A stretch of 64,000 nucleotides of DNA from an uncultured bacterium (lineage in GTDB: Bacteria > Bacillota_I > Bacilli_A > RFN20 > CAG-826): the NCBI GenBank assembly GCA_949299335.1, contig CASGAD010000014.1, positions 66,330 through 130,329 on the forward strand, written 5' to 3'. The notes beneath the pieces were generated by a model. It saw nothing but the letters and a program-made list of their open reading frames with translations, had not been told where the DNA came from and did no database searches. The position numbers and the translations under genes are program-made. Below are positions 4,028 through 62,816 of this stretch, one piece after another (position 1 is the stretch's first letter; each line of letters opens with the position of its first letter).

Positions 4028-4201
4028 ATGGCAGTACCTTTTAGAAGAACTAGTAAAACATCAAAAAGAATGAGAAGAACTCATTTTAAATTACATGTTA
4101 ATGGTGTATCAATTTGTTCACATTGTGGAGCAATGGTTAAATCACATACAGTTTGCCCAAAATGTGGTTATTATGATGGCAAACAAGTCATTAAAAAGTA
4201 A
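4028..4201 (+). CDS. rpmF: 50S ribosomal protein L32 (not in the ORF track, 57 aa)
   Basis: Hand translation gives [57 protein letters not shown]. The MAVP..R.SK..R..RR start and two CxxC pairs fit L32, and there is a good SD. Confidence 0.9.
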
Positions 4202-10147: not shown

Positions 10148-11521
10148 ATGGATAATAAATTTGAAACGCTTGTAACGCATTTGCAAACAACTGGATATGT
10201 ATTTCAGGGTTCACAAATCTATGGTGGTTTAAGCAATTCATGGGATTATGGTCCTTTAGGAAGTGAGTTAAAAAACAATTTAAAGGATTTATGGTGGAAA
10301 AAATTTGTAAGTGAATCACCTACAAATGTTGGAATCGATGCTTCTATTTTGATGAATCCACGTGTTTGGCAAGCAACAGGCCACGTTTCAACTTTTAACG
10401 ATCCATTGATTGATTGTAAACATTGCCATGCACGTCATAGAGCAGATGACTTAATAAGCGAACAATTTCCAGAAGTGGATGTAAATGCTATGACTATGGA
10501 AGAAATGAGTGCATTTATTAAAGAACATGAAGTTAAATGTCCTGCTTGCGGAAAGTCTAATTTTACAGATGTTAGACAATTCAATATGATGTTTAAAACT
10601 CATATTGGTGTCACCGAAGATTCTAAAAGTGTTGTTTATCTTAGACCAGAAACAGCTCAAGGTGTTTTTGTAAACTTTAAAAACGTTCAAAGAACAACAA
10701 GAAAAAAGTTACCACTTGGTATTGCTAATGTAGGAAAATCATTTAGAAACGAAATTACTCCAGGGAACTTTATATTTAGAACTCGTGAATTTACTCAAAT
10801 GGAGCTTGAATTCTTCTGTAAACCTAATACAGATTTAGAATGGTTTAAATATTGGAAAGATTTTTCTATCGATTTTGTAAAATCTTTAGGTATTAAAGAA
10901 GAAAACTTACGTTTTAGAGATCATGAACCTGAAGAATTAGCTTTTTATTCAAAGGCAACAACTGATATCGAGTATAAATTTCCTTTTGGCTGGGGAGAAA
11001 TCTGGGGTATTGCTGATAGAACCGATTATGACTTAAAAAGGCATCAAGAATTTAGTGGTGAATCCTTAGAATATTTAGATCCAGAAACTAATGAAAAATA
11101 TATTCCTTATTGTATTGAACCAAGTTTAGGACTTGATAGATTATTTTTAATGGTAGTAACTGATAGTTATGATGAAGAAACATTAGATAATGGTGAAATT
11201 AGAAAAGTAATGCACCTTAAGCCATTCTTAGCACCATTTAAAGCAGCTATTTTACCTTTAAATAATAAATTAACAGATAAAGCATTATCTGTATTTAACG
11301 ATTTAATCCCATATATTAGGGTAAATTTTGATACAACAGGTAGTATTGGCAAAAGATATCGTAGAAATGATGAAATCGGTACACCATATTGCGTAACAAT
11401 TGATTTTGATACATTAAACGATGAATCAGTTACTGTTAGAGATCGTGACACAATGCTTCAAGAAAGAATTAAAATTTCCGATTTAAAGAATTACTTATTA
11501 GAAAAAACTTTTTATAAATGA
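10148..11521 (+). CDS. glyQS: Glycine--tRNA ligase (single-chain class II)
   Basis: Motifs [26 protein letters not shown] and GLDRL. 457 aa. SD AAAGGAG. Confidence 0.93.
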
Positions 11522-20456: not shown

Positions 20457-20606
20457 ATGCGTGATAACATTATTTTAAAATGTACAGTTTGTGGTGAGGA
20501 ACAATACATTACATCAAAGAATAAGAAGAACAATCCTGACAGAATCGAAAAAAATAAATATTGTCCACATTGCCAAAAAGTTACAGTTTTCAAAGAGAAG
20601 AAGTAA
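20457..20606 (+). CDS. rpmG: 50S ribosomal protein L33 (not in the ORF track, 49 aa)
   Basis: Hand translation gives [49 protein letters not shown], with two CxxC pairs and a KNKKN..R motif. Confidence 0.9.
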
Positions 20607-41451: not shown

Positions 41452-43209
41452 TTATTTCTCCTCTATAACTTTAAGTCCAAGATCTTTTAGTTGATCTTCA
41501 TCAACACTTAATGGAGCGTTTGTAACTGGACAAACTGCTGATAAATTTTTAGGGAAAGCGATAACATCTCTAATATTATCTGTTCCACTTAAAATCATTG
41601 TAAGTCTATCAAGTCCAAGAGCAAATCCACCATGTGGAGGTGTTCCATATTTTAAAGCTTCTACAAAGAATCCAAATTTTCTTTCGATATCTTCTTGTGT
41701 GAAGCCAAGGACTTTAAAAATTTCTTTTTGAACATCTTGGTCGTAGATTCTTAAAGAACCACCACCAGCTTCATATCCATTTATTACTATATCATAAGCA
41801 TAGCTATAAACGTTATATGGTTCTGTTTCTAATTTATCTAAATCTTCATCACATGGTCTAGTAAATGGGTGATGACATGGGGTAATTTCACCAGTTTCTT
41901 CACTCTTTTCAAATAACGGGAAATGTACAACCCATAATAGATCAAATGTATTTGGTTTAACTAATTGTAATTCTTTAGCTAACGTTGTTCTTAAAGCACC
42001 TAATCCAAAGTTAAGATCTCTTAAAATTTGGCTTGTGCCAATAATTAAAGCATCACCATCTTTAAGTTCCATCCTTGTGATTAATTGTTTTTGAATTTCT
42101 TCACTTAAAAATTTGACTAATGAACCTTCTAAAACACCATTTTCATATTTAAAGTATCCAAATTGTTTCATATTAAACTTTGGAGCAATTAAATTTAATT
42201 GGTCTTGTTTTTTACGTGAAAGTTCTTTAGCGAATCCATCTACTCTAATAGCCTTAACATATTTATTTTCTTTATATGCGTTAAATTCTGAATTAACAAG
42301 GATATCTTTTACATCAATTAAATATAAAGCATATCTTGTATCAGGCTTATCACTTCCATATTTATTAACTGCTTCTAAGTAATCCATTCTTCTTAAAGGC
42401 AATTTTACATCATAATTTAAAACCTTTTTAAAAATGTTACTGACAAGTCCTTCGCCTAAAGTTAAGATTTCATCTTGGTTTAAAAAACTTGTTTCGACAT
42501 CAATTTGAGTAAAATCTGGTTGTCTATCAGCTCTTAAATCTTCATCTCTAAAGCAACGAGCAACTTGATAGTATCTTTCAAAACCAGCTACCATTAACAT
42601 TTGCTTATATAATTGGGGTGATTGAGGTAATGCATAGAATTGTCCATGATGAATTCTACTAGGAACTAAATAATCTCTAGCTCCTTCTGGAGTCGAAGGT
42701 GCTAAATATGGGGTTTCTATCTCAATGAAATCATTAGCATCTAAATATTCATGAACTGCTTTAACAATATTTGCTCTAATCTTAAAACGTTTTTGCATTA
42801 CATTTCTTCTTAGATCTAAATAACGATATTTAAGTCTAATATCTTCGTTTGCATCAGTATTTTCTTGAGTTGAAATTGGAGGTTGAGTAGCTTTATTAAT
42901 AACTTTTACATAGCTTGCTAAAAGTTCAACTTCTCCAGTAGCTAAATTTTTATTAGGAACATCTTTTTTAACAATTGTACCCTTGATTTCTACTACATAT
43001 TCATTACGAATATCAGGAACTTCAATTTCATCTGGTTTTATACAAACTTGTAAATATCCTTCTCTATCCCTTACATCGAGAAACATCAAACTACCAAGTT
43101 TTCTAATTTTAGATACCCAGCCTAAAATGGAAACTTCTTTTCCGACATCGGAAACTCTAAAATTTCCACAATAGTTAGTTCTAGTAAATTTTTCTTCCAT
43201 TACATCCAT
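41452..43209 (-). CDS. aspS: Aspartate--tRNA ligase
   Basis: FRDEDLRADRQPEF-like motif 2 and GLDRL motif 3. The start is uncertain: ATG 43209, ATG 43200 or GTG 43227. Confidence 0.9.
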   Translation of the reverse strand: MDVMEEKFTRTNYCGNFRVSDVGKEVSILGWVSKIRKLGSLMFLDVRDREGYLQVCIKPDEIEVPDIRNEYVVEIKGTIVKKDVPNKNLATGEVELLASYVKVINKATQPPISTQENTDANEDIRLKYRYLDLRRNVMQKRFKIRANIVKAVHEYLDANDFIEIETPYLAPSTPEGARDYLVPSRIHHGQFYALPQSPQLYKQMLMVAGFERYYQVARCFRDEDLRADRQPDFTQIDVETSFLNQDEILTLGEGLVSNIFKKVLNYDVKLPLRRMDYLEAVNKYGSDKPDTRYALYLIDVKDILVNSEFNAYKENKYVKAIRVDGFAKELSRKKQDQLNLIAPKFNMKQFGYFKYENGVLEGSLVKFLSEEIQKQLITRMELKDGDALIIGTSQILRDLNFGLGALRTTLAKELQLVKPNTFDLLWVVHFPLFEKSEETGEITPCHHPFTRPCDEDLDKLETEPYNVYSYAYDIVINGYEAGGGSLRIYDQDVQKEIFKVLGFTQEDIERKFGFFVEALKYGTPPHGGFALGLDRLTMILSGTDNIRDVIAFPKNLSAVCPVTNAPLSVDEDQLKDLGLKVIEEK

Positions 43210-43243
43210 ATATTTCAAAAATCTCACTTTCTATACAATAAAT

Positions 43244-44617
43244 TTATTCTTTATGATGGCATCCACAATGACAGTGTTCATCATCATGATGATTTTCACA
43301 TTCACATTCATGATCTTCGCCACAATGACAGTGTTCATCATGCTCATCTTCAGCAAATAAATCATCAAGTACATCAATCAATTCATTTTCTTTTACTTCA
43401 ATTTGCTCTTGAGACATCATATTTTTAAGAACAAATTTATGAGAATCTAATTCATTATCACCAATAATTAAGGCATAAAGAGCGTCTCTACGTTCACCTT
43501 TTTTAAACATTTGACTCATGCCTTTATTTTCTAAACAAATATCACATGTATAACCTGACATTCTAATAACATTAGCGATTGATAAAGATTCATTTATTGC
43601 TCTTTCACCAATTGGCATCAAATATACATCTAAGAATTGTTCGATATCAGTAAATAAATTATCATCTTCCATAACACTAGCAAGTCTTTCAATACCCATA
43701 GCGTAGCCACAACCTTCAATTTCTGGTCCACCTAATTCATGGATTAACTTGTTATAATGTCCTCCAGCGCCAATTGCACCATAATTTTTGCCTTGGCTAG
43801 AAGTATAATGGAATTCAAAAACAACTCCACTATAATAATCAAGACCTCTAACTAATTCATGGTCAATAGTATATTTAATTCCTAATTTATCTAGATTAGT
43901 TAAGACTGTATCAAAATCTTTTTTAGCACTTTCACTTAAAAAATCAGTAATTTTTGGTGCCTTATCGATAATTTCGCGGTCTTCTTTAACTTTACAATCT
44001 AATATTCTAAGAATATTAAGTTTAAATCTTTCTTTACAATCTTCACACATTGTGTCGATATATTGAGAAAAATACTCTTTTAATGCTTCTTTATATTTGT
44101 TTCTAGATTCTTCATCGCCCAAAGTATTGATTTTTAATTCCAAATTTTGGAATCCAAGCATCATTAAAGAGTTATATCCCATCGAAATAACTTCTGCATC
44201 TCTTTCGCTTCTAATAACTCCTGCACATTCGACACCGAATTGGTTAAATTGTCTATATCTACCTTGTTGTGGTCTTTCATAACGGAAACAAGGACCACAA
44301 TAATAGCCTTTAATTGGATAATCTTGCATAGCAAAAAGTTTATTTGCTACCATCGATCTAATTGTTCCGGCAGTAATTTCAGGTCTTAAAGTAATGCTTC
44401 TACCACCTTTGTCATCAAAAGTGTACATTTCTTTACGAACAATATCGCTACTATCACCGACACTTCTTAAAAATAATTCACTCGTTTCAATAATAGGAGT
44501 TCTAAATTCTTTATAGCCATATAATTCAGCAGTTCTTTCTAAAACTACTTCAATATATGAATATTTTCTAGCTTCATCCAATATTACATCATGAGTTCCT
44601 TTAACTAAATTAAACAT
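43244..44617 (-). CDS. hisS: Histidine--tRNA ligase with a His/Cys/acidic C-terminal tail
   Basis: Class II motifs (CFRYERPQ.GR.RQF, GGRYD-like GAGGHYN). The last roughly 35 aa read EDEHDEHCHCGEDHECECENHHDDEHCHCGCHHKE. Confidence 0.92.
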   Translation of the reverse strand: MFNLVKGTHDVILDEARKYSYIEVVLERTAELYGYKEFRTPIIETSELFLRSVGDSSDIVRKEMYTFDDKGGRSITLRPEITAGTIRSMVANKLFAMQDYPIKGYYCGPCFRYERPQQGRYRQFNQFGVECAGVIRSERDAEVISMGYNSLMMLGFQNLELKINTLGDEESRNKYKEALKEYFSQYIDTMCEDCKERFKLNILRILDCKVKEDREIIDKAPKITDFLSESAKKDFDTVLTNLDKLGIKYTIDHELVRGLDYYSGVVFEFHYTSSQGKNYGAIGAGGHYNKLIHELGGPEIEGCGYAMGIERLASVMEDDNLFTDIEQFLDVYLMPIGERAINESLSIANVIRMSGYTCDICLENKGMSQMFKKGERRDALYALIIGDNELDSHKFVLKNMMSQEQIEVKENELIDVLDDLFAEDEHDEHCHCGEDHECECENHHDDEHCHCGCHHKE

Positions 44618-44639: not shown

Positions 44640-44669
44640 ATTATAAATAATTATTATGCTTTCGTTCAA
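44640..44669 (-). promoter_or_regulatory. Candidate sigma-A promoter of hisS-aspS
   Basis: On the minus strand: TTGAAC (44669-44664), 18-nt spacer, TATAAT (44645-44640). SD AAGAGG before ATG 44617. Confidence 0.45.
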
Positions 44670-48585: not shown

Positions 48586-51495
48586 TTAGTCATTAATTCC
48601 GCTAAATACAGCTTCTTCTGGGCCTTCTTCACTAGCAACTACTTTATTTTTCTTCTTTGTATCTTTCTTTTTAATAGTCATTTTGCCTTTTAACTTAGCA
48701 AATTCTTTAGTAAAGATTATTTCTAATGGCAATTGTAATGATTTAACAAATATACAAAGTAGTATCATACCTAAAAGGATAAGTCCTAAAGTATATTGAT
48801 CAAATGCTGTTGAGAAGAAGAATGAGATAACTGCGAAAGCTGAAAGTGCTGTGGCAACAAGAATATAACTATAGTTAATATTTGTAACATAATTATATTC
48901 TGTTTCTCTAACATCTAATTCAAACAATCTATGTTTATTTTCTTTATAATAAAGTTTTTCGGCTGAGTAATAAATATCAAGCATAATGTAGCCTAAGATA
49001 CTTAATAATAATAAGCCTAAGCTAATTTCACTAGTGAATGGCCCTCTAATTAATGAGAAGATACCAGCAACACTAGTCAAGGTTGCTCCAACTATAATAA
49101 CTCCACTTAAAGCTTTTGATGGGCCATATCTTAATAAGAAGTAAATTAAGGTTGCACCTAAAGATATTGCGCAAGCTATTAATACGTAAAGATTAATGTT
49201 ATCATCTCTAACGTCATAGACTTTTTCAATAGAAACAATATAGTTTGTGCCTAAATTTGCCTTTTCTTGAATAGCTACACTAATTGCTTCTTCAGCTGTT
49301 AAGGCATTATCATATCCTTCAACATAATAAATACCTTCGTTAGATTCTGTGTCAATTATTGTGTTTAAATCAACATAGAAATAAACTTCTCTATTGGTGA
49401 TAATGGAACTTGAGCTTTCACTAAAGTTGTAATCATAATAGAAATAATCGACTGTAAGCTTATTTTTGAATGCCTTTGTAGTTAAATCTTTATCAGTATA
49501 AATGTTATCAAAGGCATTTTGAACTTTAATTGAGTTAGCTGCAATATCATATTTTGCATTACTATTTTTAATGTTATATGTAATGACTGCTCTTGAATCT
49601 AATTCATTAGAGCCAGCATTATAAATATTGCCATTAATCGATTGGAAAGTAATTAATCCAACAATGCTTGCTAATGTTAAGACACTAGTAACAATACCAA
49701 CAATTTTAAATGTTGACTTAGGAGTTTTCTTTTTAAATGATTCAAGATAAGAAGATTTAACATCTTTACTTAAATCAGCGGTAACTTTTGTATCAATTGC
49801 AAATTGCTTGATATGATTTTGAGCATAAGCTGAGTTATATAAGAACCAACTTACACCTCTAAAGGCAACTATATTAATAACAATTGTGAAAGCACTGCCT
49901 AATAAAGTTATTGCACCAAATGCAGAAATAACTGAACTTGGAATTAAGTAACAAGTTAATCCAATAATTGCACCTATTGCTGAGAAGCCAATAATATTCA
50001 TTGAAGTCTTTTTATTAGCTTCTTGATATGCTTTTTTAAGAGATTTACCTGCGTAAATTTCTGTTTTTGCTTTTGATAACCATATAGATACACCAAATGT
50101 TGCAATCAAACTTACACTAAGTAAGCCTAAAATGGTACCAATATTGAATTCATTACCTAAAACATTAAATACACTTAAACTTGAAATTATACTGCCTAAA
50201 ACAGTAATAATGCCTATAATTCCAGCTGTACCATAGTTAACTAACAAGAATAATGAACAAATTATAACTGCTACTAATGTAGAAATTAAAACTGTAGATT
50301 CTAAATTAACTGTGCCTGCTCTTTTAATATATTCGATGAATGGAGAAACAATATTTGTTCCATCACTTACTTCGGATTGATTGATTAAAGTAATTTCATA
50401 ACGTAAATTTGAAGAATTTAATTCGTTACAGAATAATGTTGCTTTTTTATATGCCAATCTATCATCTTCTTCAATTGTGTTATAGATTTTATAACTAGTT
50501 GTAACATCAATTGGCTTATCACCATCATTAATTGCGCCTAAATTGTAGTATTGGAAGTAAACTTCATCATAAACTTCAGCTTTTTGATCTTCTTCACTTA
50601 AAGTTGAATCATAATTCCAATAGAAACTTGCTGGATTTGATAAATCAAAGAATGTAACAACATAATCTGATAAATTGGAGTCATCAATATTTTTATCATC
50701 ATTTGATAACATATCGCTTAAGTCTAATCCTGATAACCAGTTATTGACAACGAATAAGACTTTACTTTTATCAAGTTTAGTAACTTCTTCGGCTTCAGAA
50801 TCATCGCCTGTAGTATCATCTGTTGTTGTTGATTCATCAGTCGTAACTGTTGAGTCATCAGCTTTTTGAACATTTTCTTTAAATCCAAACTTATTGTAAT
50901 TTGCACTTGAAGTTGAAGAATCTGTGCTTGAAGACATTTCGTCAACAGTAGATTTGAAGTCTTCTGGATTAGTTAATGTTACTACTACATAAGGATAACC
51001 ATTTAAATATTCTACTCTAGCGCTATTTTCAACAAATACTGGCTCAACAGTTGTATCACCAGCTAATACTTGAGTAGCATCTCTACCCATGTTATAAGTT
51101 TCTTCATAGTCCTTAATCATGATAGAGTTACTGAAAGTTAAATAATTAATAACATCATCATAATCGTTTAATGTATCTTTGAAGGTTAAACTCAAAGTAT
51201 CATCCCCGATTGTTTCAAGCTTATATTCACTAATTTCTGCACTATCTAATCTAGATTTAAATTCTTCTGTAACTTCTTCTAAGTAAGTCACATCAGGATC
51301 TAAACTTGTTGCAGGATTTTCAGTTCCGCTTGAGAAGTCATTGTTTGTCTTTCTTTCAGAAATTTTGAAAACAAAATTTCTAGATGTTGAGTAATCACTA
51401 TTTCCGTTTGTTGATAGAATAGTAGGAACTACTCCAACCAACACTGCAGTGAATAATGACGCACACATCGAAATATAACCTATAAATCTCTTCAT
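48586..51495 (-). CDS. secDF: Protein translocase subunit SecDF (fused), with an expanded extracytoplasmic domain
   Basis: Two 6-TM SecD/SecF modules. 969 aa. SD AAGAGG. Confidence 0.85.
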   Translation of the reverse strand: MKRFIGYISMCASLFTAVLVGVVPTILSTNGNSDYSTSRNFVFKISERKTNNDFSSGTENPATSLDPDVTYLEEVTEEFKSRLDSAEISEYKLETIGDDTLSLTFKDTLNDYDDVINYLTFSNSIMIKDYEETYNMGRDATQVLAGDTTVEPVFVENSARVEYLNGYPYVVVTLTNPEDFKSTVDEMSSSTDSSTSSANYNKFGFKENVQKADDSTVTTDESTTTDDTTGDDSEAEEVTKLDKSKVLFVVNNWLSGLDLSDMLSNDDKNIDDSNLSDYVVTFFDLSNPASFYWNYDSTLSEEDQKAEVYDEVYFQYYNLGAINDGDKPIDVTTSYKIYNTIEEDDRLAYKKATLFCNELNSSNLRYEITLINQSEVSDGTNIVSPFIEYIKRAGTVNLESTVLISTLVAVIICSLFLLVNYGTAGIIGIITVLGSIISSLSVFNVLGNEFNIGTILGLLSVSLIATFGVSIWLSKAKTEIYAGKSLKKAYQEANKKTSMNIIGFSAIGAIIGLTCYLIPSSVISAFGAITLLGSAFTIVINIVAFRGVSWFLYNSAYAQNHIKQFAIDTKVTADLSKDVKSSYLESFKKKTPKSTFKIVGIVTSVLTLASIVGLITFQSINGNIYNAGSNELDSRAVITYNIKNSNAKYDIAANSIKVQNAFDNIYTDKDLTTKAFKNKLTVDYFYYDYNFSESSSSIITNREVYFYVDLNTIIDTESNEGIYYVEGYDNALTAEEAISVAIQEKANLGTNYIVSIEKVYDVRDDNINLYVLIACAISLGATLIYFLLRYGPSKALSGVIIVGATLTSVAGIFSLIRGPFTSEISLGLLLLSILGYIMLDIYYSAEKLYYKENKHRLFELDVRETEYNYVTNINYSYILVATALSAFAVISFFFSTAFDQYTLGLILLGMILLCIFVKSLQLPLEIIFTKEFAKLKGKMTIKKKDTKKKNKVVASEEGPEEAVFSGIND

Positions 51496-55796: not shown

Positions 55797-58385
55797 CTAA
55801 ATGTTTTTTAATTTTTCTAAAATTTGGTTAAGTTTACTCTTATAGTTTTCGTATTTTTCTTTTTCAAGATCAATTTTAACTTTTGGAGCTTTTTCAACGA
55901 AGTTTGGATTATTCAATAAACCCTCACTTCTTTTAATTTCAAATTGAACTTGAGCCAAATCCTTCTCTAATCTAGCTTTCATCTCATTTTTATTAATTAA
56001 GTCTTTAACAAACAATGTTAAGTTATCAAGAATAATACTGGTAACACCTTTAATGTTTTCTTTAGTAGTAACTAAAGATTTAGCAAAGCTAAATCTAGCA
56101 ATATAAGGATAAATATCTTCTACATCTAAATTTGTTTTAATATAAAGTTCTAATGGTGCGTTTGGAGCTAATTCATTTTTAACCTTATATTCTCTTAATT
56201 TTTCAATTGCAGCTTTTAATATATCTCCCTTTTTAAGTGAATCTTCAAAGATATATTCATTTTCAAAATCAGGATAAGATTCAAGCATGATAGACTCTTT
56301 ATGATCTGGTAAAGCTAAATAAATCTCTTCTGCAATAAATGGCGAGAATGGATAAATCATCATAATTATTGCTTTTAAAGCTTTAATTAATACAAAATAA
56401 GTTCCTTCTTTATATGCTTTTTCATCTTTTAAAGTAACTTTTGTCATTTCTAGATAAAATGAACAGAAATCATCATAAACAAAATTATATAAATTTGTAC
56501 TAGCAACACCATATTCATATGAATCCATGGCTTTAGTTACATTCTTAATAGTATCTTCTAATCTAGTGAGAATGTATTTATCAATTGTTTCAAGTTTATT
56601 TAAATTTATTTCACCTTGAGAATAGTTTTCAGGCAAATTCATAAGAATATATCGGGCACTGTTCCAAATTTTATTTAAATAATTATTAGCGGATTTAACT
56701 TTTTCTTCGCTATAACGCATATCTAAGCCTGGAGATGCAGTTGTTGCTAAGAAATATCTTAAGCTATCGACACCATAATTATTAATTACATCTATTGGAT
56801 CAATACCATTTCCTAATGATTTTGACATTTTTCTTACTTGAGAATCTCTTACAATTCCATGAATTATGACATTCTTAAATGGAACATTCTTTGTAAAATA
56901 TAGTCCTTGGAAAACCATTCTTGCTACCCAGAAGAAGATAATATCGTATCCAGTGACCATACAATCTAAAGGATAATAACGTTTAAAATCATCTGTATTA
57001 TCTGGCCAACCTAATGTTTCAAAAGGCCATAAAGCGCTTGAGAACCAAGTATCTAAAACATCTTCATCTTGGGTCCGATTTTCCATATCAGTAGGTTTTT
57101 GGGCAGAAACTAGTATTTCATTAGTAGTTTTATGGTAATAAACAGGAATCCTATGACCCCACCATAGTTGTCTTGAGACACACCAGTCATCACATTTTTC
57201 CATCCATTGCTCTAAAACTTTTTCAAATCTTTCTGGGAAAAATTTAATTTTATCTTTTGAAGCTTGTTGATCTAAGACAAGTTGAGCAAGAGGTTTCATT
57301 TTTACAAACCATTGTAATGAAAGAATAGGTTCTACTACAGCATCACTTCTTTCGCTGTGTCCAACTTGGTGTTTAATGTTTTCAATCTTAATCAAATTGC
57401 CTTCTTCTTTAATAGTCTTCACTAATAAATCTCTACAAGCAAATCTATCCATACCAGCGTATTTACCACAATTTTCTTTCATAGTGCCATCAACATTCAT
57501 AATAATTGGATGTGGTAAATTGTATTTTTGACCAATAATCCAGTCATTAGGATCATGAGCTGGGGTACATTTCATTGCGCCAGTACCAAATTGAATATCA
57601 ACATATTCATCTGCAATAACAGGAATTTCCTCATGGTTAGCTGGATTTATAACTTTTTTGCCAACTACATCTTTATATCTTTCATCATTCGGATTAACAA
57701 CAATGCAAGTATCACCAAACATTGTTTCAGGTCTAGTTGTAGCAATTGTTAAAAACTTTGAAGGATTATCTACAAAAGGGTATTTAAAGTAGAAAAATTG
57801 GCCTTCATCTTCTTTATATATAACTTCAATATTACTTAAAGCAGTTTTCATGACTGGATCATAGTTAACAATTTTTTGTCCTCTATAAATAAGTCCTTTA
57901 TTATATAAAGTAACAAAAACTTTGTTAACAGCTTTTGAACAACCAGCATCCAAGGTGAATCTTTCACGAGTATAATCGACCATTATGCCCATTTTCGCCC
58001 ATTGTTCATGAATTTTAGAAGTATATTCTTCTTTCCATTCATAAGCACGTTTCATGAATTCTTCTCTACCTATGATAAATCTTGAAGTTCCTTCACTAGC
58101 AAGTTTAGCATCTACTTTTGCTTGAGTAGCAATTCCAGCATGGTCAACACCTGGTAAAAATAATACATCAAAGCCTTTAGCTTTTTTATATCTACAAGTA
58201 ATATCTTGAATAGTGTTATCGATTGAGTGACCTATATGAAGCTTACCTGTAACGTTTGGTGGAGGAATAACCATAGAAAATTTTTGCTTTGATTTGTCTC
58301 CAGCTGTAAAATAACCAGCTTTCTTCCAAATTTCGTATCTTCCAGCTTCCACTTCTTTAAAATCGTATTTTTTGTCAAGTGCCAT
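55797..58385 (-). CDS. valS: Valine--tRNA ligase
   Basis: HIGH (LHIGH) and KMSKS motifs, C-terminal coiled coil. 862 aa. Confidence 0.95.
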   Translation of the reverse strand: MALDKKYDFKEVEAGRYEIWKKAGYFTAGDKSKQKFSMVIPPPNVTGKLHIGHSIDNTIQDITCRYKKAKGFDVLFLPGVDHAGIATQAKVDAKLASEGTSRFIIGREEFMKRAYEWKEEYTSKIHEQWAKMGIMVDYTRERFTLDAGCSKAVNKVFVTLYNKGLIYRGQKIVNYDPVMKTALSNIEVIYKEDEGQFFYFKYPFVDNPSKFLTIATTRPETMFGDTCIVVNPNDERYKDVVGKKVINPANHEEIPVIADEYVDIQFGTGAMKCTPAHDPNDWIIGQKYNLPHPIIMNVDGTMKENCGKYAGMDRFACRDLLVKTIKEEGNLIKIENIKHQVGHSERSDAVVEPILSLQWFVKMKPLAQLVLDQQASKDKIKFFPERFEKVLEQWMEKCDDWCVSRQLWWGHRIPVYYHKTTNEILVSAQKPTDMENRTQDEDVLDTWFSSALWPFETLGWPDNTDDFKRYYPLDCMVTGYDIIFFWVARMVFQGLYFTKNVPFKNVIIHGIVRDSQVRKMSKSLGNGIDPIDVINNYGVDSLRYFLATTASPGLDMRYSEEKVKSANNYLNKIWNSARYILMNLPENYSQGEINLNKLETIDKYILTRLEDTIKNVTKAMDSYEYGVASTNLYNFVYDDFCSFYLEMTKVTLKDEKAYKEGTYFVLIKALKAIIMMIYPFSPFIAEEIYLALPDHKESIMLESYPDFENEYIFEDSLKKGDILKAAIEKLREYKVKNELAPNAPLELYIKTNLDVEDIYPYIARFSFAKSLVTTKENIKGVTSIILDNLTLFVKDLINKNEMKARLEKDLAQVQFEIKRSEGLLNNPNFVEKAPKVKIDLEKEKYENYKSKLNQILEKLKNI

Positions 58386-61358: not shown

Positions 61359-62816
61359 TTACTTTGTTTCTTCTTTTACTTCTTCAGTACTCTTTTTTGT
61401 TGTTTTTCTTGTTGTAGTCTTTTTGGCAGTTGTGCCTTCTTTTGCTTTTGTTGTTGTAGCTTTCTTTGCTGTTTTCTTAGCTGGCTTTTCTTCTACAGTT
61501 GCTGTAGCATCTGCTTTTTTAGCTTCGCCTTCTTCTTTAATATCACCATTATTAGCGATAATAAATCTTTCAATCTTATTTTGATATAAGTTTTCAACAA
61601 TTCTGCTTTCATTAACAGCAAACATCTTTTTAACATCTTCTGCTTTCATGTTGTATTGTTTTGCTACATTTTCATAGTAAGCATCAACTTCACCTTTAGA
61701 AATAGTTAAATGTTCAGCATTTCCTATTTCACCAATAACAACATATTCAGTTAAACGATTTTTTGCATCTTGCTTGAATTGAGCATTAATTTTTTCATCA
61801 TCCATTCCAGTAATTTCTTTATATTGCTCAAATGTTAAACCGTTTTGTTCGATTTGATGAATCATGTCTTCTTTCATTCTATTTGCTTCATCTTCAAGAA
61901 CTTTATCAGCGATTGTGATTTCAGCATTATCACAAATTGTCTTTAAAATTTTTGTAAATTGAGCGTTTTGAGCTTGGTGTTTCTTTTGTTCGAATAAAAC
62001 TTTTTCTTCGTGTTTCTTTAAATCATCAAGAGTCTTAACACCTTCAATATTTAAAGAAGCGACGAATTCTTCGTTTAATTCAGGAACTTTCTTTTCTTTG
62101 ATTTCATGAATCATACAAACAAATTTAGCATCTTTACCAGCTAAATCTTTAACATATTGTTCTGGGAACTTAACTAAAACATCCTTTTTAGATTCACTTG
62201 TAACACCAACTAATTGATCTTCAAATCCAGGAATGAATTGGTTGCTACCTAAAACTAATGAATAGTTATCAGCACTTCCACCTTCAAATTCCTTGCCATC
62301 AATATATCCTTTAAAATCAAATACAACTGTATCACCTTTAGCAGCTGGACCATCTTTTAAAACTAATTCAGAATTATCTGCTAATAAATGATCAATAGCT
62401 TCTTTGACTTCTTTTTCAGTTACATCAGCAACTTCTAAAGGAACTTTGATACCTTTATATTGTCCTAATTTAACTTCTGGATAAGTTGTAACGACAAATG
62501 TAACATCAAATCCATCTTCTTTAACACTAGTAACATTGACTTCTGGATTACCGAATGGTCTAAGTTTGTGTTCTTTTAACGCATCGTTATATGCTGCTGG
62601 TAAGCAAAGGTTAATTGCTTCGTTAATTAAATCAGCTGGATTAATTTTTTGTCTTGCTAATTCGATTGGAGCATTGCCTTTTCTAAATCCTTTTACTTCA
62701 ACTTTGCTTGCTAATCTTTTTAAGGCTTTTTCTTGAGCGTCTTTCCAAGCTGCACCATTAACTGAGGTGCTAACTTCATAAACAGAATTGCCTTTATTGA
62801 CTAATTTTGTAGCCAT
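61359..62816 (-). CDS. tig: Trigger factor with a roughly 60-aa Lys/Thr-rich C-terminal tail
   Basis: N-terminal ribosome-binding motif GFRKGNAP, FKBP PPIase domain. SD GGAGG. Confidence 0.93.
   Translation of the reverse strand: MATKLVNKGNSVYEVSTSVNGAAWKDAQEKALKRLASKVEVKGFRKGNAPIELARQKINPADLINEAINLCLPAAYNDALKEHKLRPFGNPEVNVTSVKEDGFDVTFVVTTYPEVKLGQYKGIKVPLEVADVTEKEVKEAIDHLLADNSELVLKDGPAAKGDTVVFDFKGYIDGKEFEGGSADNYSLVLGSNQFIPGFEDQLVGVTSESKKDVLVKFPEQYVKDLAGKDAKFVCMIHEIKEKKVPELNEEFVASLNIEGVKTLDDLKKHEEKVLFEQKKHQAQNAQFTKILKTICDNAEITIADKVLEDEANRMKEDMIHQIEQNGLTFEQYKEITGMDDEKINAQFKQDAKNRLTEYVVIGEIGNAEHLTISKGEVDAYYENVAKQYNMKAEDVKKMFAVNESRIVENLYQNKIERFIIANNGDIKEEGEAKKADATATVEEKPAKKTAKKATTTKAKEGTTAKKTTTRKTTKKSTEEVKEETK

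Follow-up and report, generated by a model that had tools for sequence, protein, structure and literature searches.

A clade-restricted His/Cys-rich acidic tail, of putative metal-binding type, at the C-terminus of histidyl-tRNA synthetase in uncultured gut Bacilli

The stretch of DNA analysed here (the window) comprises 64,000 nucleotides of contig CASGAD010000014.1 from an uncultured bacterium and carries, on its minus strand, hisS, the gene for histidyl-tRNA synthetase (HisRS; 43244..44617, 457 aa including the tail), identified from its open reading frame (ORF), its Pfam domains and its match to the structure 1QE0. The product is a class IIa HisRS, otherwise ordinary, with a C-terminal extra: a tail rich in His, Cys and acidic residues (aa 422-457, AEDEHDEHCHCGEDHECECENHHDDEHCHCGCHHKE; 43247..43354, minus strand), recognized by its sequence and composition. 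This tail is real, it is found throughout the clade of the host and it is restricted to that clade, which comprises uncultured low-GC gut Bacilli; the host itself, of 29% GC, belongs to the Bacilli/'Mollicutes' gut lineages near Ca. Onthovivens. Comparison with relatives suggests that the tail is probably a zinc/nickel-type metal-chelating appendage on a housekeeping enzyme, acting as a metal buffer, reservoir or donor. No report of such a tail was found in the searchable literature on HisRS with a His-rich segment, a C-terminal extension or metal.

The tail contains 10 His, 7 Cys and 14 Asp/Glu in 36 residues, His and Cys together reaching 47% as compared to a background of 2.9% (His 1.6%, Cys 1.3%; 13,182 codons of the window). 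These 17 potential ligands form CxC(G) clusters with His on their flanks and Asp/Glu between them. A sequence-only reading of the window had described a metal-binding-like tail following a normal anticodon-binding domain, and the tail is present exactly where it was placed. The catalytic core of the enzyme (aa 7-312; 43682..44599, minus strand) was identified as PF13393 tRNA-synt_His (E=4.5e-41, above the gathering score) and the anticodon-binding domain (aa 330-418; 43364..43630, minus strand) as PF03129 HGTP_anticodon (E=3.3e-11). The nearest solved structure is the Staphylococcus aureus HisRS 1QE0, of 420 aa, which aligned only to aa 2-414 (E=2.7e-109). The reading frame is unbroken from the conserved helix through the tail to the TAA stop codon (43244-43246, minus strand). 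In an AlphaFold2 model built on a 28-sequence alignment, the body was mostly confident (low-confidence segments at aa 40-82 and 112-122), as was the alpha/beta anticodon-binding domain; the last helix spanned aa 410-425, and aa 424-457 presented no secondary structure and a predicted local distance difference test score of about 28-30. The tail is therefore predicted to be intrinsically disordered; AlphaFold2 cannot model metal, and the disorder is consistent with an unstructured metal-free tail without being proof of it.

In a six-frame scan of the 64 kb the tail was the only His/Cys-rich stretch of its kind found; two further matches were its own antisense frame and a Cys/Phe-rich frame on the plus strand (61365-61532). 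No His/Cys-rich stretch was found in GlyRS (10148-11521), in AspRS or in any other ORF of about 130 kb of clade sequence, and the same six-frame scan identified no His/Cys tail in the product of aspS, the gene next to hisS. Three aminoacyl-tRNA synthetase genes are thus present in the window, with the tail on HisRS only. The Pfam scan of HisRS gave no match to FKBP, to PF02492 or to PF07683 (cobW and CobW_C) and nothing on the tail, and a PDB sequence search with the tail gave no match, even at E<=10. A profile built from 13 tails recovered, among 2,716 candidates, just two HGTP_anticodon fragments of HisRS at E<=1.

The distribution of the tail was followed in a close and in a distant set of HisRS sequences. 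The close set comprises the 120 closest 90%-cluster representatives listed (61-93% identity), and each of the 120 carries at its C-terminus a tail, acidic, His-containing or His/Cys-rich, whose length ranges from 5 to about 90 residues. The shortest tails, of 5-11 residues, contain His only (DSDHD, EEHHHE, DVEEHHHE and DEDEHHHHEEN) and belong to a group that includes Ca. Onthovivens and metagenome-assembled genomes (MAGs) named 'Mollicutes bacterium'; the minimal form EEHHHE was identical in 40 of the listed representatives and one residue off in a few more. The longest tails, of 58-90 residues, were identified in P0004, P0006 and P0034. Other representatives (P0025, P0024, P0016, P0020 and P0027) present tails with 7-10 Cys and yet 0-2 His. 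The distant set was obtained with a HMMER search of 1.8 billion 50%-identity representatives. Among the 150 nearest HisRS clusters only P0123 (53%), P0124 (47%), P0125 (46%) and P0130 (42%) carry such a tail, with weak forms in P0127 and P0134, and about 140 of the 150 end normally, lacking it. Tails of this type are thus still found where the enzyme bodies are only 42-53% identical. In a rough neighbour-joining tree of the body (no bootstrap) the tailed sequences fall in one clade, where the short His-only tails form a visible subclade. Retention across the whole clade indicates that the tail is real and under selection.

The tail has a modular build. A repeat search identified in it three degenerate units of 35 nt, in register (43250-43284, 43283-43317 and 43307-43341, minus strand), 63-83% identical and with one CxC cluster each. 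In the relative L002 (P0004, 494 aa) the tail is a tandem array of five degenerate units, each about 33 nt long and of the type xxHHH-ED-G-CCC-G-HE. The cluster of P0004 (at least 90% identity; P0276-P0289; L002 11274-11441) contains alleles of 482, 483, 484 and 494 aa, which differ by clean deletions of 10-12 residues, that is, one module; length alleles were also identified in other clusters (486/489, 465/453 and 474/469 aa). Among relatives, then, the tail is lengthened and shortened by modules of about 11 residues, and this turnover is ongoing even within one species-level cluster.

The sequence-only reading had proposed that the tail grew by internal duplication, on the basis of a 22-mer repeated at an offset. 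That 22-mer, CCACAATGACAGTGTTCATCAT (mRNA sense AT GAT GAA CAC TGT CAT TGT GG), was confirmed as an exact match at both sites of the minus strand, encoding DEHCHCG each time: copy 1, read as (x)DEHCHCG, at 43320..43341 (aa 427-433) and copy 2 at 43263..43284 (aa 446-452). It occurs exactly twice in the window, where none is expected (100 shuffles). A repeated 7-residue peptide arose in 0.17% of composition-preserving shuffles of the tail; given identical amino acids, the probability of identical codons under the codon bias of the genome is about 0.12, so the identity at the DNA level adds little beyond the peptide repeat. In the relative L001 (93% identical) the tail has the same length, no insertion or deletion and no exact 22-mer, and its CxCG modules differ at many positions (GAA CAT CAT TGT AAT TGT GGA and GGT GAA CAT TGC CAT TGT GGA). 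Both CxCG positions align with conserved modules in the 13 tails (61-93% whole-protein identity). In the body tree the 36-aa tail of the window is nested among sister tails of 58-71 aa, which makes it more likely that this lineage lost modules than gained them; the tail has probably contracted. A recent 22-nt duplication that lengthened the tail was rejected on these grounds, and the exact identity is best read as having arisen after L001 split off, by short gene-conversion-like homogenisation or by codon-limited convergence. Growth by internal duplication is therefore the right idea for the family in general, given the module turnover within clusters, and the wrong one for the exact repeat of the window.

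Selection was compared between the window and L001 by counting codon changes. The body presented 109 synonymous and 24 non-synonymous changes and the tail 7 and 9 (Fisher p=0.0017), so the tail as a whole is much less constrained. Within the tail the 17 His/Cys codons showed 6 synonymous and 1 non-synonymous changes, as against 1 and 8 in the 19 other codons (p=0.0087), and all seven Cys were retained. Three further pairs were compared in the same way (synonymous:non-synonymous): P0006 and P0013, with 10:4 in His/Cys codons and 4:12 in spacers (p=0.026); P0006 and P0010, with 9:6 and 2:14 (p=0.009); and P0013 and P0010, with 8:7 and 3:12 (p=0.13). In the 13-tail alignment the Cys columns alone are invariant. 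These counts suggest that His and Cys are under purifying selection while the spacers drift. Across lineages, to judge from the tail sequences, His and Cys swap as a class, and the conserved trait is the ligand chemistry rather than the exact sequence or length.

The same comparisons bear on the alternative that the tail is a neutral, slippage-prone, low-complexity extension that is tolerated at the C-terminus of HisRS and has no function. This would fit the rate of amino acid change, about five times faster in the tail than in the body (9/36 and 24/421 residues), the length polymorphism inside the P0004 cluster, the predicted disorder, and the existence of a lineage nested among tailed ones, P0128, that has no tail. 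However, drift in a genome of 29% GC would not hold His and Cys at 47% over so low a background, nor would it leave His/Cys codons changing synonymously and spacers non-synonymously, nor keep the tail type down to 42-53% body identity and EEHHHE unchanged in one third of the close set (40 of the 120 listed). A neutral tail is accordingly unlikely.

As a metal-chelating appendage, the tail would extend from the solvent-exposed C-terminal helix of HisRS and bind several divalent transition-metal ions, Zn(II) and Ni(II)/Co(II) being the most plausible and Cu(I) possible. On an abundant and constitutively made protein it could buffer, store or donate metal in the cytosol, as do the His/Cys tails of SlyD, Helicobacter pylori HspA (GroES) and mycobacterial GroEL1. 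Modules of about 11 residues would be gained and lost by recombination or slippage between repeated units, and selection would keep the His/Cys ligands rather than the exact sequence or length. In the simplest view HisRS would be an incidental carrier, a dimer that is made constitutively and in abundance and whose C-terminal helix is free. The attribution to the metal-binding type made in the sequence-only reading is favoured by retention in the clade, by selection on the ligands, by the predicted disorder and by CCCGHHH motifs that the tails of relatives have in common with SlyD-type FKBP proteins and CobW/COG0523 GTPases. This evidence is comparative; from it we infer metal binding itself, the choice of metal and the physiological role.

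By its density of His and Cys, its acidic residues and its predicted disorder the tail fits the compositional class of His/Cys-rich metal-binding tails known from SlyD, HspA, HypB, UreE and COG0523 proteins. The SlyD tail binds Ni2+ and Zn2+ (PMC3292732). As in HisRS, it is a disordered C-terminal tail rich in His, Cys, Asp, Glu and Gly on a folded enzyme domain, and SlyD-type proteins (L004 and L091, FKBP_C by Pfam) contain CCCGHHH or CCGGHHH modules that are also found in the tails of HisRS relatives. The resemblance is compositional, with no alignable homology, and HisRS is an aminoacyl-tRNA synthetase and not a peptidyl-prolyl isomerase or chaperone, lacks an FKBP domain and is not evidently connected with the maturation of hydrogenase or urease. 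His stretches are present in about 40% of COG0523 proteins, where they are regarded as indicating metallochaperone activity, and the His-rich segments of COG0523, UreG and HypB are treated in the same way (PMC2770081). The E-CCCGHHH-D/E repeats of the relatives' tails also occur between the cobW and CobW_C domains of CobW/COG0523 proteins; there the segment is internal to a metal-delivering GTPase, whereas HisRS has no GTPase domain or known client. The CxC spacing is reminiscent of bacterial metallothioneins (SmtA/BmtA), but the tail matches nothing in Pfam or the PDB and is not a stand-alone protein. The closest analogues in logic would be the GroES homologue HspA of Helicobacter pylori and mycobacterial GroEL1, where metal-binding tails are grafted onto housekeeping proteins (PMC4671568, PMC5116745, PMC10170517). 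In both cases a lineage-specific tail of metal-binding type is carried by an essential and abundant protein; the differences are the carrier, the clade, and the far greater length variation (5-90 aa) and repeated modules of the HisRS tail. With HisRS an aminoacyl-tRNA synthetase is added to the carriers of such appendages; the kind of tail is known, and the mechanism is not new.

Further carriers were sought with the terminal motif of the relatives, (E)HHCCCGHHHE(K), which was back-translated and scanned over 185,579 species with one genome each, giving at least 120 loci. The ORFs at these loci were classified by local phmmer against seeds identified by Pfam, except for the P-type ATPase seed L028, which was named from its sequence. 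The matches listed were dominated by Collinsella, and the absence of HisRS among them is uninformative. They comprise 65 C-terminal tails of a Collinsella NAD_binding_2/11 (3-hydroxyisobutyrate-dehydrogenase-like) enzyme, 26 linkers of CobW/COG0523 GTPases (those from Erysipelotrichaceae by Pfam, the others by seed match), 3 SlyD-type FKBP tails, 2 N-termini of P-type ATPases (through the seed named from sequence reading), 1 PduL, 3 small acidic proteins containing zinc ribbons, 1 small protein (L095) and 19 unclassified ORFs, about a dozen of which are spurious frames in GC-rich DNA. When JGI metagenomes were scanned with AT-rich codons, 29 loci were obtained; as judged by sequence inspection, most were CobW-type proteins or spurious short frames, SlyD-type proteins were also present, and none was a HisRS.

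Some of these carriers deserve a description of their own. The Collinsella enzyme (NAD_binding_2/NAD_binding_11, 3-hydroxyisobutyrate/6-phosphogluconate-dehydrogenase-like) is an ordinary enzyme carrying a SlyD-like tail, a conserved C-terminal stretch of about 45 aa (...CGCGEHGDDHECGCGHHHGEDHECCGGHGHDDGHECCCGHHHGE) identified in L006 (ORF ending at about 2930) and in about 64 loci among L007-L123. The CobW/COG0523-type linkers of low-GC gut Firmicutes consist of tandem EECCCGHHHHD modules with up to five exact copies of the motif, in Anaeroplasma MAGs (L040, L110), Erysipelotrichaceae (L011, L062) and metagenomes (L130, L132, L138, L140, L150, L155); Pfam confirmation of the linker proteins covers L009 and L011 only. 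The small acidic proteins (L016, L059 and L082) are very acidic Clostridia proteins of about 170-180 aa with a CCCGHHH-type segment and two CPxCG zinc-ribbon motifs, and neither of the two that were scanned has a Pfam family.

Several points weigh against a metal-chelating tail. No sequence homologue of the tail was found among solved structures, and the profile of tails recovered only HisRS fragments, so that the tail is linked to SlyD and COG0523 by its composition and a short motif and not by homology; the tail of the window has CHCG and CEC instead of the scanned CCCGHHH. HisRS catalysis needs no transition metal, and the explanation consequently gives no reason for HisRS as the carrier. 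The tests of selection are based on small counts, and the three additional pairs were aligned on low-complexity sequence and are less secure. Finally, P0128 is a single exception nested in the tailed clade, but together with the range of lengths, from 5 to 90 aa, it points to a function that is dispensable or dosage-like.

A reason for HisRS as the carrier would be supplied by a regulatory tail, coupling metal status to histidine charging through the activity, stability or oligomerisation of HisRS. HisRS would then be a metal-responsive synthetase, in which occupancy by Zn, Ni or Cu(I) modulates charging or stability, or which exchanges metal with the histidine-metal pool; in one variant the tail strips metal from histidine-metal complexes beside the histidine-consuming enzyme. 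The restriction of the tail to HisRS among the three synthetases of the window, and its permanence on HisRS across the clade, are in favour, and a labile histidine-zinc pool linked to the COG0523 protein ZigA and to HutH was proposed in Acinetobacter, according to a passage of PMC10269061 that cites its ref. 67. However, the sequence gives no sign of a connection between tail and active site, and the range of 5-90 aa suits dosage better than a defined switch. Similar tails also occur on unrelated carriers in other lineages, such as the Collinsella dehydrogenase, PduL, SlyD and GroES (PMC4671568), and by this analogy the carrier looks incidental, which argues against a regulatory role. Both the regulatory tail and the metal-responsive synthetase are considered distinctly improbable. 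If the latter were true, it would tie metal homeostasis directly to translation in a gut bacterium with a reduced genome, whose hisS is no longer under T-box control.

A further alternative is a translational sensor, where the His codons of the tail stall ribosomes at low His-tRNA and tune the completion of HisRS or the translation of aspS, replacing a T-box. In Bacillus the hisS-aspS pair is regulated by a T-box. Here 10 of the 36 codons are His codons, hisS and aspS are 34 nt apart (with the aspS start taken as the ATG at 43209) and not separated by a terminator, and no Rfam family, the T-box included, was identified in the window at gathering thresholds; over the tail Rfam gave only two sub-threshold eukaryotic chance matches. 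The gap between relA and hisS, of 76 nt, is too short for a T-box leader and contains a promoter-like site (TTGAAC-18-TATAAT; 44640..44669, minus strand) about 20 nt upstream of the hisS start, the best consensus match in the region (10/12) and a consensus match only. The absence of a T-box before the operon, noted in the sequence-only reading, is consequently borne out. The sensitivity to His-tRNA that the same reading considered possible for the His-dense 3' end found no support. Tails of relatives have 0-2 His and yet 7-10 Cys, the conservation of Cys codons is no weaker than that of His codons, and the interchange of His and Cys across lineages is explained by ligand chemistry and not by His codons. 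Over the tail and on through the start of aspS, the mRNA folds no more stably than shuffled sequences do (z=0.21), and no terminator-like site was identified on the coding strand between hisS and aspS. Segments of the same composition occur in SlyD and COG0523 proteins without any link to tRNA-His, and stalling would presumably cut the output of HisRS exactly when more of it is needed. With his leader peptides and T-boxes the tail has in common that His codons are densely packed beside genes of histidine metabolism; it differs in that the codons lie inside the coding sequence of the enzyme itself, Cys is equally conserved, and there are no alternative RNA structures, terminator or T-box. A His-codon attenuator was therefore rejected, and the sensor is very improbable. 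That the tail stems from faulty assembly or sequencing, or from frameshifted read-through, is practically excluded: nothing was found in favour beyond the general concern of a short repetitive region, the same 457-aa protein is present in several independent assemblies, the identical tail was identified in four cluster members taken from Logan, ENA and NCBI assemblies, many samples contain homologous tails in conserved synteny, and the frame is continuous to the TAA.

Should metal binding hold, an enzyme essential for translation would at the same time buffer metal in the cytosol of a widespread clade of uncultured low-GC gut Bacilli, and an aminoacyl-tRNA synthetase would join the short list of housekeeping carriers of metal tails (GroES/HspA, GroEL1 and SlyD). 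The gain and loss of modules within species would offer a natural dosage series for the chelating capacity selected by the cell, and the tails would flag metal economy as a selective pressure in the host organisms. In practice, such tails will make the protein bind immobilised metal affinity chromatography resins. The picture of HisRS catalysis is unchanged unless the regulatory reading is true.

The neighbourhood of hisS is that of other Firmicutes as regards the hisS-aspS pair. The downstream gene, aspS (AspRS; 41452..43227, minus strand), was taken from the ORF list and from called genes in L002, L124, L156 and L157; its true start is probably the ATG at 43209, which gives 585 aa and matches the relatives. 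The order recJ-relA-hisS-aspS-tkt is common to the window, L001, L002, L124, L156 and L157, and the longer arrangement obg-ruvAB-orf-recJ-relA-hisS-aspS-tkt was kept in every relative fetched. The ribosomal proteins L32 and L33 of the window (4028-4201 and 20457-20606, plus strand) are four-Cys CxxC...CxxC zinc-ribbon forms, which indicates that the organism keeps zinc-containing ribosomal proteins. Between ruvB and recJ there is a conserved ORF of about 960-980 aa (window 48586-51495, minus strand; L001 3115-6030; L002 3084-6029; L124 730-3609), whose copies in the relatives have no Pfam family on record. For another protein of the window, of 862 aa (55797-58385), a look-up gave no exact record. 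In L002 (2009-2967) ruvB was called as two ORFs of 198 and 96 aa, as compared to a single gene of 319 aa in L001 and the window, a split that probably reflects a frameshift or faulty assembly of that contig.

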